DNA of 64,000 nt from Escherichia coli (GTDB taxonomy: Bacteria > Pseudomonadota > Gammaproteobacteria > Enterobacterales > Enterobacteriaceae): assembly GCF_003018255.1 (NCBI RefSeq), contig NZ_CP027440.1. One strand, 5' to 3'. This document shows, one piece after another, positions 56,801-59,800 of the stretch (position 1 is the first letter of the stretch; each line of letters starts with the position of its first letter). Position numbers: made by a program.

Positions 56801-59800
56801 ACATAGAAGGCACCGGCAAAAATTACGCTTTTCGTAATGGTGAATATGTCGATGCGTATTATATGGCGCGGGTGAAGTAAGATAGTGCCCTTTTTCTGAG
56901 ATGGAAAAAGGGTGTCATTCAAAATCTGCATACCTTCCTTTAAGGTATTTATTTGCCCAATACATATATTGAGATTTAACTCATAATTACTTCCTAAAGT
57001 GTAATATTTTATTTTTTAATATATACGCCTACAATTTCCTGGCGTAAATAAATAACAATTAACAAGCATAATATTGCCATTGATAAAATAGCATGCCATA
57101 AAAGGACTTTTCAGGGATGAGTAATATTGTTTACCTGACAGTAACGGGAGAACAACAAGGAAGCATCTCCGCAGGTTGTGGGACTTCTGAGTCTACAGGT
57201 AATCGCTGGCAGAGCGGGCATGAGGATGAAATATTTACATTCTCACTCTTAAATAGTATTACTAATACGGGGCTTGGTTCACAGTTCCATGGTATAACAT
57301 TTTGTAAATTAATTGATAAAAGCACTCCATTATTTATTAATTCCATTAACAATAATGAACAGTTATTTATGGGATTTGACTTCTATCGAATAAATAGATT
57401 TGGCAGATGGGAAAAGTATTATTATATACAACTAAGAGGCGCTTTTTTATCGGCTATTCATCACCAGATCTTTGAAAACCAACTGGATACAGAAACAATA
57501 ACTGTTAGTTATGAATTTATCCTCTGCCAACATCTTATCACTAACACCGAGTTCAGCTATTTGGCACTCCCTGAAAATTATAACCGCTTGTTTTTACCAA
57601 ATTCAAAAAACAAAACAAATAATGGTTTAAAAACGTTAAACAGCGAAGCTGTTGGCAGGCTACTTGCTGCTGGTGGCGTATACAATGGGAACATTGAAGG
57701 TTTCAGAGATACTGCGGAAAAACTGGGTGGAGATGCAATCAAAGGCTATGATCAAATACTAAATGAAAAAACAGCGGGCATAGCGATAGCAACAGCATCT
57801 ATTCTTTTAACAAAGCGTTCTAATGTTGATACATATACAGAAATAAATAGTTACTTAGGCAAACTTAGAGGTCAACAAAAACTTCTTGATGGTATAGACA
57901 TAATAGAAATAATATACATTAAGAGACCTTCAAAAGACTTAGCTAACTTACGAAAGGAGTTTAATAAAACTGTAAGAAAAAATTTTCTTATCAAACTTGC
58001 AAAAACCTCCGAAGAATCTGGAAGATTCAACGCCGAAGACCTTTTAAGAATGAGAAAGGGCAATGTTCCTCTAAATTATAATGTTCACCATAAACTATCT
58101 CTAGATGATGGTGGTACTAATGATTTCGAAAATTTAGTATTAATCGAAAACGAACCATATCATAAAGTTTTTACTAACATGCAATCACGAATAGCTAAGG
58201 GAATATTAGTAGGTGAAAGCAAAATCACTCCCTGGGCCATTCCATTTGGCTCAATTTATCCTCTCATGAAAAATATTATGGAACCCACAAAATGATGACT
58301 AAAACCCAAATAAATAAATTAAAAAAAATGATGAATGATTTAGACTATCCATTTGAAGCACCGCTCAAGGAATCATTTATTGAAAGTATAATCCAAATAG
58401 AATTTAATTCTAATTCAACTAATTTCCTGGAGAAATCATGTAATGAAGTTAGTATTCTTTTTAATAATCAACCTGATTATCTTACTTTTTTAAGAGCAAT
58501 GGATGGATTCGAAGTTAATGGATTACGATTATTTAGCCTCTCGATTCCAGAACCTTCAGTTAAAAACCTTTTTACCGTAAATGAATTTTATAGAAATAAT
58601 GATGATTTCATAAACCCTGATCTACAAGAACGGTTAGTGATCGGGGATGATAGCATTTCAATATTTACTTATGACATTAAAAGTAACTTTTTTGAAATTA
58701 GAGATAATATTGGCACCGAAAATATATTCAGTTCGTTTAGTGATTTCTCTTCATTCTTAAACGAAATCATGGACAGTTGTTCATAATAATCAAAAGGTAA
58801 CAAAAATCATTGTAAACCATGCCATCTTTTTAGAGATTACCAACAGAAAATTCCTTGTTCGAAACTTAGCAAATGCAAGCTATGGAAAAACTTACAACGG
58901 AACTACACTCCTTAAGTAAGATGGGCCGAAGACATGTAATCTCTATTTTAGCCGAAATAGCTAATGGCTATGATGATTTTAGTGACATGTTGATTTAGTT
59001 AGAATTTCACCCGAATCATAAGATTCTGATATCTTAAATAAGAAAATCCCGTTCGACGTTCTGAAAAAGAAATCACAAAATATTAGCAGATACTTATTTC
59101 GTGACTGTATATTATCCGATGAACTTTTTTCAAAACCAGCATTTAATAATATCTTTGACGAAGATGAACACGCCTTTTCTCAAAGTATAACGCAAGAATA
59201 ATAATATAACGCTCAACAATAATATTTATTATAATTATGATTACTTATCACGACGCATTCGCGAAAGCGAACCATTACCTTGATGATGCAGATCTCCCTG
59301 TCGTCATCACTCTGCATGGACGTTTTATCCAGGGCTGGTATTTCTGTTTCGAATCACAAGAATTTCTTGAATCTGGTGATGAGGCCGCGCGCTTAGCCGG
59401 TAACGCACCTTTTATTATTGATAAAGACAGTGGTGAAATTCATTCCCTTGGAACGGCAAAGCCGCTGGAAGAATATCTACAGGATTATGAAATAAAAAAG
59501 GCTACCTTCGGCTTGCCCTGACAATACGGCCCTCTTCCCACGAAGAGGGCCGCTAACCTTAATACCCCGCCGTTAAATCATCTACTGAGCGCGGGTCGGA
59601 TGCGCCGTACAACTCACCGTCAGGCCCAACCATAATGCTTTGTGTACTGCCCATCGCCTCTTTCAGCGCCACTTTCTGACCTTTTGCTTCCAGCAGCTTG
59701 AGCGTATCCGGGCTAAATCCTTTCTCGACACGCAGCTCATCCGGCAACCACTGATGGTGGAAACGCGGTGCATTGGTCGCTTCGGCGACATTCATACCAT

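Follow-up and report, generated by a model that had tools for sequence, protein, structure and literature searches.

The yhhZ-yrhA pair of Escherichia coli as a probable T6SS effector-immunity module identified with Hcp-ET1/ETI1

The overlapping genes yhhZ and yrhA, found in a window of E. coli DNA (i.e. the whole stretch of 64 kb that was analysed), probably form a T6SS effector-immunity module of the polymorphic-toxin kind, and we identify the pair with the published Hcp-ET1/ETI1 on the basis of matching description, strain, and locus. The pair is thereby already known. Little is at stake for discovery, because both genes already have names and a classification, because experiments on them have been reported, and because most E. 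coli carry the intact form. The analysis connects the older designations YhhZ/YrhA with the T6SS designations Hcp-ET1/ETI1, places YrhA by its predicted fold in the SUKH immunity superfamily, recognises the IS1 copy in K-12 yrhA as a lineage-specific lesion, and flags the neighbouring yrhB as a probable orphan Imm35 immunity gene. A modest puzzle is that the toxin persists in ~70% of E. coli, while ~40% have T6SS2, the system said to fire YhhZ.

The locus and its identity

Both genes belong to an AT-rich island of ~2.65 kb, yhhZ-yrhA-yrhD'-yrhB (56881..59558), which forms an insertion flanked by the core genes yhhY and ggt; all features described below are on the + strand. The GC content of the island is 0.28-0.36 (~30%), compared with ~0.50 in the flanks and in the whole window. 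The two core genes adjoin one another, within a limit of 1,500 bases, in 1,253 of 5,426 E. coli genomes, a class that also takes in sites with yrhB only, and the gap between them is ~40 bp in the joined sites inspected. Synteny with an annotated relative shows that the window otherwise contains only core metabolic and fimbrial genes. Over the first 20 kb of the window, the best-matching genomes searched share 98.8-99.1% identity with it.

The 5′ untranslated and promoter region of yhhZ (56881..57116) has a GC content of 0.30 and carries AAGGA 9 bases ahead of the ATG. A scan of the AT-rich island for consensus promoters and terminators was uninformative, because the sites were no more frequent than in shuffled sequence; for K-12, the promoters yhhZp5 and yhhZp7 have been cited upstream of yhhZ (PMC12428005). 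The presence of long ORFs in DNA of such low GC content (28-35%), together with hundreds of conserved homologs, argues that yhhZ and yrhA are real genes and not chance ORFs.

Strain 55989 carries a yhhZ-yrhA pair between yhhY and ggt, and the proteins of the window are identical to those of 55989 at 376 of 392 residues for YhhZ (95.9%) and at 158 of 164 residues for YrhA (96.3%). Hcp-ET1/ETI1 of STEC004, O104:H4 C227-11, and 55989 were reportedly described by Ma et al. in 2017 (Virulence 8:1189); Hcp-ET1 has the identifier AAF13_24945. Reviews and a preprint describe Hcp-ET1 of these strains as an Hcp-HNH effector in an orphan position, the antibacterial activity of which is attributed to a predicted HNH DNase (PMC6730261; PMC6099711); they report that ETI1, encoded downstream, neutralises the effector and that T6SS2 delivers it (bioRxiv 10.1101/2024.03.05.583533; PMC6730261). 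The yhhZ-yrhA pair shares with Hcp-ET1/ETI1 the combination of Hcp and an HNH DNase, the orphan site, the immunity gene directly downstream, and, in 55989, the very same locus. The 16 and 6 substitutions that distinguish the two window proteins from those of 55989 leave all conserved catalytic residues unchanged. Activity and delivery of the window pair are predicted; for alleles that are 96% identical, toxicity of the DNase, protection by the protein encoded downstream, and a requirement for T6SS2 have been reported.

The initial annotation had stated that no T6SS structural gene lies in the window. In agreement, a tblastn search of the 64-kb window with 17 T6SS2 proteins of strain 55989 retrieved only the Hcp part of yhhZ. 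The accompanying description of YhhZ as an orphan effector holds for the window, but it may not extend to the chromosome as a whole: JNE23-011, which at this locus is the closest relative with 99.8% identity, carries the full set of T6SS2 genes at aspV, ~1.4 Mb away. For a T6SS2-positive O157 strain, it has been stated, with data not shown, that DH5-alpha was not killed (bioRxiv 10.1101/2024.03.05.583533).

Domain architecture of YhhZ

The gene yhhZ (57117..58295) encodes a 392-aa predicted Hcp-HNH fusion toxin of the Hcp-ET1 type and is annotated as tssD/yhhZ in relatives. An ORF of this length with an Hcp-like N-terminal region had been proposed before, and both parts of the proposal stand. 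Residues 1-150 (57117..57566) were assigned to the Hcp/TssD tube-protein domain. The match to TIGR03344 covers residues 1-147 and reaches 115.4 bits, well above the cutoff of 58.9 (E 2e-33), Pfam T6SS_HCP (PF05638) matches with E 9e-11, and the PDB chains of Hcp3, Hcp, and Hcp1 match the N-terminus with E values from 1e-11 to 6e-6. The identity to one Hcp from the T6SS2 cluster of 55989 is 36.7%. These similarities characterise the N-terminus as a bona fide Hcp domain, for which assembly into hexameric rings and secretion by a T6SS are predicted, as reported for Hcp-ET1 (PMC6730261; bioRxiv 10.1101/2024.03.05.583533).

The Hcp domain and the toxin are connected by a helical pre-toxin or linker segment (residues 172-243, 57630..57845), which accompanies the toxin among closer relatives. 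From KTLNS..GRLLAAGG onward, it is conserved together with the toxin under both Hcp and DUF8093 heads. It was modelled as helices with pLDDT values of 52-89, i.e. lower than those of the toxin core, which exceed 90 in the AlphaFold model.

Residues 244-383 (57846..58265) represent a putative colicin-type HNH (His-Me finger) DNase domain, with the HNH motif NVHHKLSLDDGGTNDFENLVLIENEPYHKV at residues 322-351 (58080..58169). The HH dyad and the downstream His and Asn had been read as an HNH signature in the initial annotation, and the comparison with homologs bears this out. R270, R279, H324, H325, D330, N335, N339, H349, and Q356 do not vary among 29 diverse homologs and are all present here, and 21 further sequences agree with them at the HNH columns. 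A profile search of the C-terminal region, which had been suggested as a check, gave different E values with the family and with the single sequence: the family profile of the toxin domain found Cas8f-HNH with E 2e-4 and the DNases of colicins E7, E9, and E2 and of pyocins AP41 and S2 with E 0.006-0.05, while Pfam HNH (PF01844) matched the YhhZ sequence with E 0.013. Among 27 homologs, 26 match Pfam HNH at E <=0.1, but just two at E <=0.001. Foldseek searches with the toxin model retrieved the DNases of pyocins S2/AP41 and ColE7/E9 with a probability of 1.00 and an rmsd of 2.1-2.8 Å over 77-88 residues, and also the Serratia Rhs2-CT HNH toxin (PDB 9t38) with a probability of 0.94. Taken together, sequence and model assign the C-terminus of YhhZ to the HNH/His-Me DNases with the beta-beta-alpha-metal fold, and cleavage of DNA is predicted.

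The DNases of colicins E7, E9, and E2 and of pyocins S2, AP41, and S8 resemble the YhhZ toxin in the beta-beta-alpha-metal fold and the HH...N...H motif, at 15-28% identity over ~80 aligned residues (2.1-2.8 Å), and a single tight protein inhibitor, predicted in the case of yhhZ, is encoded downstream. The differences concern delivery, inhibitor, and one metal ligand. Colicins and pyocins use receptor-binding and translocation domains, whereas YhhZ is an Hcp fusion predicted to travel via T6SS. Colicin immunity proteins are of the small Im7/Im9 type, i.e. four-helix proteins, whereas YrhA has 164 aa and a predicted SUKH alpha/beta fold. Where colicin E7 has its final metal-ligand His, YhhZ has Thr353, with Asn354 adjacent to it. 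The Rhs2-CT/RhsI2 pair of Serratia marcescens likewise consists of a T6SS-delivered HNH DNase toxin and a cognate immunity protein, but Rhs2-CT terminates an Rhs cage protein and is not fused to Hcp. Usp, or Hcp-ET3-4, of uropathogenic E. coli shares with YhhZ the Hcp N-terminus followed by nuclease bacteriocin domains and then by immunity genes (Imu1-3), but it differs in having pyocin S3 and colicin DNase domains, three tandem immunity genes, and a location on another genomic island (PMC6730261; PMC2907695).

The toxin domain is C-terminal in all 635 representative proteins matched, which range from 60 to 1,261 aa. In Enterobacteriaceae the heads are Hcp or DUF8093, and the more distant heads recognised by Pfam are LXG, PT-TG, PAAR-like, RHS, MuF_C, and WXG100; for ten long toxin homologs, NCBIfam gave no match in the N-terminal part, while Pfam did. 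Because LXG, PAAR-like, RHS, MuF, and DUF8093 proteins end in the same toxin domain, YhhZ has the architecture of a true polymorphic toxin in the sense of Zhang et al. 2012. The possibility that DUF8093 is a cryptic Hcp was considered and rejected, with no similarity detected by BLASTP and an hhalign probability of 0.2%.

YrhA, the IS1 insertion of K-12, and yrhB

The gene yrhA (58292..58786) encodes a 164-aa predicted SUKH-fold immunity protein of the ETI1 type, an assignment that draws on NF038335, the modelled fold, and conserved adjacency. Its ATG (58292-58294) overlaps the TGA of yhhZ (58293-58295), read ATGA, as had been described from the start, and this arrangement points to translational coupling of yrhA to yhhZ. 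YrhA matches the NCBIfam YrhA family (NF038335) with E 6e-37. The model has a pLDDT of 88, and its six best PDB matches are all SUKH proteins (3d5p, two chains of 2prv, i.e. YobK, 2icg, 2pag, and 3ffv), with probabilities of 1.00-0.63 and TM values of 0.37-0.60. The founding SUKH structures, e.g. B. subtilis YobK, are thus the top matches, at moderate TM-scores (0.47-0.60). YrhA differs from other SUKH proteins in having an NCBIfam family of its own and in the outcome of sequence searches, i.e. no SMI1_KNR4/SUKH match in Pfam at E <=0.1 and no SUKH chain among the PDB sequences searched with the family profile, the YrhA sequence itself having returned nothing but noise from the PDB. Membership of YrhA in the SUKH (SMI1/KNR4) superfamily is therefore assigned from the modelled fold, and a neutralising role is predicted. 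Some members of the YrhA family are labelled SMI1/KNR4 in UniRef.

The immunity gene is directly downstream of the toxin gene here, in Citrobacter, and in Enterobacter. YrhA homologs with 58-65% identity directly follow the toxin in both genera, in Citrobacter koseri at the yhhY-ggt locus, as in the window, and in Enterobacter at another locus and with a different N-terminal domain. The view that the downstream ORF occupies the position of an immunity gene, first put forward from its location, has thus gained support from the SUKH fold and from an adjacency that is kept across genera and across a swap of the N-terminal domain. Among immunity proteins paired with HNH-fold toxins, those of the SUKH family are the most frequent (PMC3482391). 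A K-12 paper of 2025 still treats yrhA as uncharacterised (PMC12428005).

In K-12 derivatives, IS1 lies within yrhA and the target site GACATTAAA is duplicated, as stated in the initial annotation and as verified at the junctions of K-12 JM83. The 9-bp site is present and uninterrupted in the window (58673..58681). The IS1 copy in K-12 yrhA has been named IS1E (PMC12428005). The state of yrhA was counted by the contiguity of the IS1 target site in 5,426 complete genomes; the target segment is contiguous in 3,413 (~63%) and split in ~361 (~7%). The insertion is essentially restricted to the K-12 lineage and represents a lineage-specific lesion. The idea that the intact gene preserves the ancestral pair is thus true but unremarkable: most E. 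coli have the uninterrupted form, and the intactness of yrhA here is therefore ordinary. K-12 retains an intact yhhZ next to the truncated yrhA, which encodes residues 1-139 of YrhA, and is devoid of T6SS (PMC6730261), which makes constitutive toxicity of YhhZ in cis unlikely.

Downstream of yrhA lies the yrhD' remnant (58873..59198), a degraded gene with a 41-aa ORF (58873-58998) followed, in another frame, by an open stretch of 59 codons (59022-59198). Relatives annotate yrhD as a pseudogene, and for a reconstructed conceptual protein of 111 aa the homologs were short E. coli ORFs only, and no Pfam match was found. The last gene of the island, yrhB (59237..59521), encodes a 94-aa protein of the Imm35 family. 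Pfam Imm35 (PF15567) matches residues 5-83 over the full length of the model with E 9e-22, while a sequence search against PDB returned only noise. The GC content of yrhB (0.45) is higher than that of the rest of the island. The gene was found in 4,048-4,068 of the 5,426 E. coli genomes, and in strain DETEC-P169 it is present at the locus without yhhZ-yrhA and is therefore independent of them. A conceivable origin of yrhB is an Hcp/Tox-PL1 cassette that was displaced and of which only the immunity gene would have stayed behind. Imm35 has been associated with an adjacent papain-like Tox-PL1 toxin (PMC3482391). Upstream of yrhB no such toxin was found, the preceding yrhD' remnant having no Pfam match, and yrhB is hence classified, by sequence, as an orphan among the Imm35 immunity genes, i.e. 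one that lacks a neighbouring cognate toxin.

Proposed mode of action and alternatives

In the proposed mechanism, the Hcp domain of YhhZ would join the T6SS tail tube, probably in mixed rings with ordinary Hcp, and a T6SS from another chromosomal site, reportedly T6SS2 at aspV, would inject YhhZ into an adjacent bacterium. There, the colicin-type HNH DNase would cut the DNA of the target cell, while YrhA would protect the producer and its siblings by binding and blocking the nuclease. The present analysis shows the identities of the domains and their folds, that the catalytic residues are conserved, that the toxin domain is reused in modular fashion, and that toxin and immunity genes stay adjacent; expression and firing of YhhZ by the source strain are what we infer.

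The distribution of the genes bears on an unlikely alternative, namely that the module is a mostly silent or decaying orphan, in which selection keeps yrhA and yrhB against armed neighbours, while the toxin drifts. YhhZ would then never be fired in many carriers, and this strain may be one of them. Toxin DNA is present in 3,772 of the 5,426 genomes (~70%), whereas T6SS2 sheath genes are present in 2,279 (40-42%), and at least 1,490 genomes have the toxin without T6SS2 sheath genes; K-12 is an example of a toxin carrier without any T6SS. Decay is also suggested by recurrent IS1-mediated truncations and deletions at the locus and by a 348-aa yhhZ allele (P0006) with an internal deletion, but six of six alleles examined retain the 392-codon frame and all catalytic residues. 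The AT-rich composition of the island would fit silencing, as such a composition is typical of xenogeneic silencing. The dN/dS values of yhhZ within E. coli are ~0.26-0.53, and the value of ~0.5 for the whole gene would fit a drifting toxin, while that of ~0.2 for the Hcp part speaks against drift. In four divergent comparisons of the toxin segment, three revealed 5-8 nonsynonymous and no synonymous substitutions, and the fourth revealed six and three; these small counts are compatible with relaxed constraint. However, the pair is kept at the same locus in Citrobacter, the closest relative JNE23-011 has the cognate T6SS2, and active T6SS2-dependent killing has been published (PMC6730261; bioRxiv 10.1101/2024.03.05.583533). 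For the strains without T6SS2, we think it rather improbable that the island is kept for a reason other than attack, either as a standing "immunity island" or for an intracellular role of YhhZ that is independent of secretion. As an "immunity island", it would direct YrhA against Hcp-ET1 and YrhB against papain-like Tox-PL1 toxins, and, if this holds, the version of the toxin-immunity cassette that Enterobacter, Franconibacter, and Erwinia carry under a DUF8093 head would point to a delivery route not described so far.

Two further readings dispense with T6SS attack by an active nuclease, and to each we assign a very low probability. An intracellular toxin-antitoxin or abortive-infection system, in which phage attack frees the HNH nuclease from YrhA independently of secretion, would account for the overlapping two-gene operon of a nuclease and a small inhibitor, for its persistence in strains without T6SS, and for the integrase and phage-like genes that adjoin some Enterobacter DUF8093 versions. 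Yet none of three proteins matches the PADLOC defence models, the N-terminus is, by its profile matches, a bona fide secreted tube protein, elsewhere the toxin domain terminates secreted toxins of the LXG, PAAR-like, and RHS types, and SUKH is typical of the immunity to secreted toxins (PMC3482391). Equally improbable is a degenerate, catalytically dead HNH domain, which would make YhhZ a mere variant of structural Hcp or a DNA-binding protein. Blondel et al. 2009 indeed used the term "degenerate HNH" for the domain and suggested that its role has nothing to do with T6SS (PMC2907695). The weak single-sequence Pfam match, Thr353/Asn354 at the position of the colicin E7 His, and Ser328 in the E. 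coli alleles, where at least 90% of the homologs have Pro, would be in accord with this view. On the other hand, H324, H325, D330, N335, N339, H349, and Q356 are invariant even in distant homologs, and the fold matches those of active colicin DNases. The His-Me finger classification and later work (PMC6730261) regard the domain as an active nuclease, and the cognate immunity gene is retained alongside the toxin in every lineage examined.

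The YhhZ-YrhA pair as a predicted nuclease and its predicted immunity protein

The genes yhhZ (57117-58295, plus strand, 392 aa) and yrhA (58292-58786, plus strand, 164 aa) overlap in the sequence ATGA, which contains the yhhZ stop codon and the yrhA start codon. They belong to an AT-rich island (56881-59558) with a GC content of 0.28-0.36, compared with ~0.50 in the flanks and the whole window. The gene order is gntRKU-yhhW-yhhX-yhhY, island, ggt-yhhA-ugpQ, and the flanking genes are E. coli core genes. The region 56900-59560 shares 99.8% identity with E. coli JNE23-011 and 96-98% with most other E. 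coli genomes; for the first 20 kb of the window, the identity to any genome in the collection is 99.1% or less.

The feature has been described before. A 2009 study presented YhhZ as an “evolved Hcp” whose HNH domain is degenerate (PMC2907695), and in 2017 the protein was placed in group 32 of the His-Me finger superfamily (PMC5714182). According to reviews and a preprint that summarise Ma et al. 2017, Hcp-ET1 is an orphan Hcp-HNH effector of STEC004, O104:H4 C227-11 and 55989; its antibacterial activity is ascribed to a predicted HNH DNase. The protein encoded downstream, ETI1, reportedly neutralises the effector, which depends on the type VI secretion system T6SS2. Because 55989 carries yhhZ-yrhA at exactly the same locus, with 376/392 and 158/164 residues identical to the window proteins, we treat the window pair as putative alleles of Hcp-ET1/ETI1. 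A 2012 paper on genomic islands (PMC3309015) gives the E. coli yhhZ-yrhAB cluster the function “conversion of methionine to cysteine”, a misannotation that apparently arose because unrelated genes of B. subtilis are also called yrhA and yrhB.

The Hcp-like N-terminal region noticed in the initial annotation is evident: residues 1-147 match the Hcp/TssD family TIGR03344 with 115 bits (curated cutoff 58.9) as well as solved Hcp structures, and Pfam T6SS_HCP is found at the N-terminus with an E value of 9e-11. The Pfam HNH match is weak (E 0.013), and therefore the HNH assignment was tested with homologs, conserved residues, profile comparisons and the predicted fold. A search of 1.8 billion representative proteins yielded 635 relatives, in all of which the matching region is formed by the last ~140 residues, at protein lengths from 60 to 1,261 aa. 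In a diverse alignment of 29 members, R270, R279, F282, H324, H325, D330, G333, N335, N339, H349 and Q356 are invariant, and the window allele retains all 11; the motif quoted in the initial annotation corresponds to residues 322-351. With the alignment profile, Cas8f-HNH is hit in its HNH domain (E 2e-4), and pyocin AP41, colicins E7, E9 and E2, and pyocin S2 are hit in their DNase domains (E 0.006-0.1). Residues 172-392 were modelled with AlphaFold; the model has pLDDT values above 90 throughout the core and superimposes on the DNases of pyocins S2/AP41/S8 and colicins E7/E9/E2 over 77-88 residues at 2.1-2.8 Å, with a Foldseek probability of 1.00. The HNH toxin Rhs2-CT of Serratia is a further structural match.

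Taken together, these homologs, invariant residues, profile matches and the fold match characterise the C-terminal domain as a predicted colicin-type HNH DNase with intact catalytic residues, in line with the HNH-type domain originally proposed from the His and Asn residues (H324, H325, N335, N339, H349). Both the invariance of the catalytic residues and the fold match run counter to a dead HNH domain. One E. coli YhhZ allele of 348 aa lacks, by an in-frame internal deletion, 44 residues where the toxin domain begins, and the protein collection also contains many “partial” YhhZ entries.

YrhA has no Pfam match, and its NCBIfam match is restricted to its own family, NF038335 (E 6e-37). Its AlphaFold model is confident (pLDDT 88, pTM 0.84), and the top PDB matches, 3d5p, 2prv (B. 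subtilis YobK), 2icg, 2pag and 3ffv, are precisely those on which the SUKH (Syd/US22/Knr4-SMI1) superfamily was founded. Among the immunity proteins of nuclease toxins, HNH-fold toxins included, SUKH proteins are the most widespread (PMC3482391). YrhA homologs with 58-65% identity are encoded directly 3′ of the toxin gene in Citrobacter koseri, also between yhhY and ggt, and directly 3′ of a toxin gene headed by the domain DUF8093 at an unrelated locus in Enterobacter. This adjacency in both settings makes the toxin module plus YrhA the conserved unit, regardless of delivery head or locus. The ATGA overlap, the SUKH-fold model and the toxin adjacency bear out the proposed immunity position of the 164-aa reading frame.

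Delivery heads of the toxin module

The toxin module is preceded by an Hcp domain in E. coli and Citrobacter, and it is found (55-70% identical) behind the ~170-aa Pfam domain DUF8093 in Enterobacter, Leclercia, Pantoea, Franconibacter, Erwinia and Serratia. No relationship of DUF8093 to Hcp was detected, with no similarity in BLASTP and an hhalign probability of 0.2%. More distant relatives carry the toxin domain at the end of proteins with LXG, pre-toxin TG, PAAR-like, RHS, MuF_C or WXG100 domains. Polymorphic toxins are defined by such reuse of a single C-terminal toxin behind many delivery heads (PMC3482391), and by these architectures the YhhZ toxin domain behaves as one. In Enterobacter, Leclercia, Franconibacter, Erwinia and others, the toxin module and a YrhA-type immunity gene lie behind DUF8093 at a locus other than that in E. 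coli. No T6SS genes were found within 10 kb of the DUF8093-headed cassettes on the Enterobacter contigs and CP056148.1 (loci L002-L005, 10001-11663).

Distribution, orphan status and constraint in E. coli

Among 5,426 complete E. coli genomes, toxin-domain DNA is present in 3,772-3,789. The yrhA segment spanning the K-12 IS1 site is present in 3,774 genomes, uninterrupted in 3,413 and, by difference, split in ~361, while yhhY and ggt are joined, as an empty or yrhB-only site, in 1,253; the yhhY-ggt gap is ~40 bp in the inspected empty-site genomes. The IS1 insertion in K-12 yrhA mentioned in the initial annotation is real: it is an IS1E copy with the target duplication GACATTAAA, which corresponds to the uninterrupted window positions 58673-58681. 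The island is a hot spot for IS1, and in other strains this element has mediated deletions. Three independent events are a truncation of yrhA in K-12 JM83, a loss of yhhZ-yrhA in STB20-1, and a loss of the entire island together with the 3′ end of yhhY in EC291. An uninterrupted yrhA is thus the majority state in E. coli, and the window shows nothing unusual. The suggestion that the pair is ancestral fits its presence at the same yhhY-ggt locus in Citrobacter, and the intact state as such is not special.

The effector was described as an orphan within the window, and indeed a tblastn search with 17 T6SS2 proteins matched the Hcp part of yhhZ alone (36.7% identity to one Hcp of the T6SS2 cluster), so the window lacks T6SS machinery. 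The T6SS2 cluster is located at aspV in 55989, and the same complete cluster is present in JNE23-011, the closest relative at the locus, where one accessory gene (VasL) is frameshifted. Because the T6SS2 sheath genes (tssBC) are present in only 2,183-2,279 of the 5,426 genomes, at least 1,490 toxin carriers are devoid of T6SS2; K-12 and B strains lack any T6SS (PMC6730261). None of the three proteins has a PADLOC match as an anti-phage defence protein.

The full yhhZ reading frame is kept in six of six alleles compared, with dN/dS values within E. coli of ~0.26-0.53 for the whole gene and ~0.2 for the Hcp part. The toxin segment (57846-58295) differs from 55989, K-12 and RIVM_C019217 by 5-8 nonsynonymous and no synonymous substitutions, and from strain 8178 by six and three, respectively, small counts that are statistically compatible with neutrality and do not separate relaxed from diversifying selection. 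In K-12 an intact yhhZ stands beside a truncated yrhA, which points to low expression or residual immunity. According to a preprint, a T6SS2-positive O157 strain failed to kill DH5-alpha (data not shown; bioRxiv 10.1101/2024.03.05.583533). Such observations leave room for the rival explanation that the toxin is silent in many strains, which would retain the pair for its immunity function.

Further genes of the island and a neighbouring difference

The product of yrhB (59237-59521, plus strand, 94 aa) clearly belongs to the Pfam family Imm35 (E 9e-22). Because Imm35 is associated only with papain-like Tox-PL1 toxins (Zhang et al. 2012, PMC3482391) and none is encoded near yrhB, the gene looks like an orphan immunity gene. 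Its GC content of 0.45 is above that of the rest of the island, and in strain DETEC-P169 it sits by itself at the yhhY-ggt site; both features suggest independence from the yhhZ-yrhA cassette. The gene is present in 4,048-4,068 of the 5,426 genomes (~75%). The degraded small gene yrhD' (58873-58998 and 59022-59198, plus strand) consists of a 41-aa reading frame that ends early in a TAG, and of 59 open codons that follow in a different frame. It has no homologs beyond short E. coli ORFs, no Pfam match and no assignable family, and may have been left behind by an older toxin or immunity cassette.

At the other end of the window, a comparison of positions 1-300 with JNE23-011 revealed that this strain carries a RelE/ParE toxin and NadS gene pair between pckA and envZ (172-844 of its locus L018). 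The pair is missing from the window, where envZ (~292-1644) directly follows the end of pckA.
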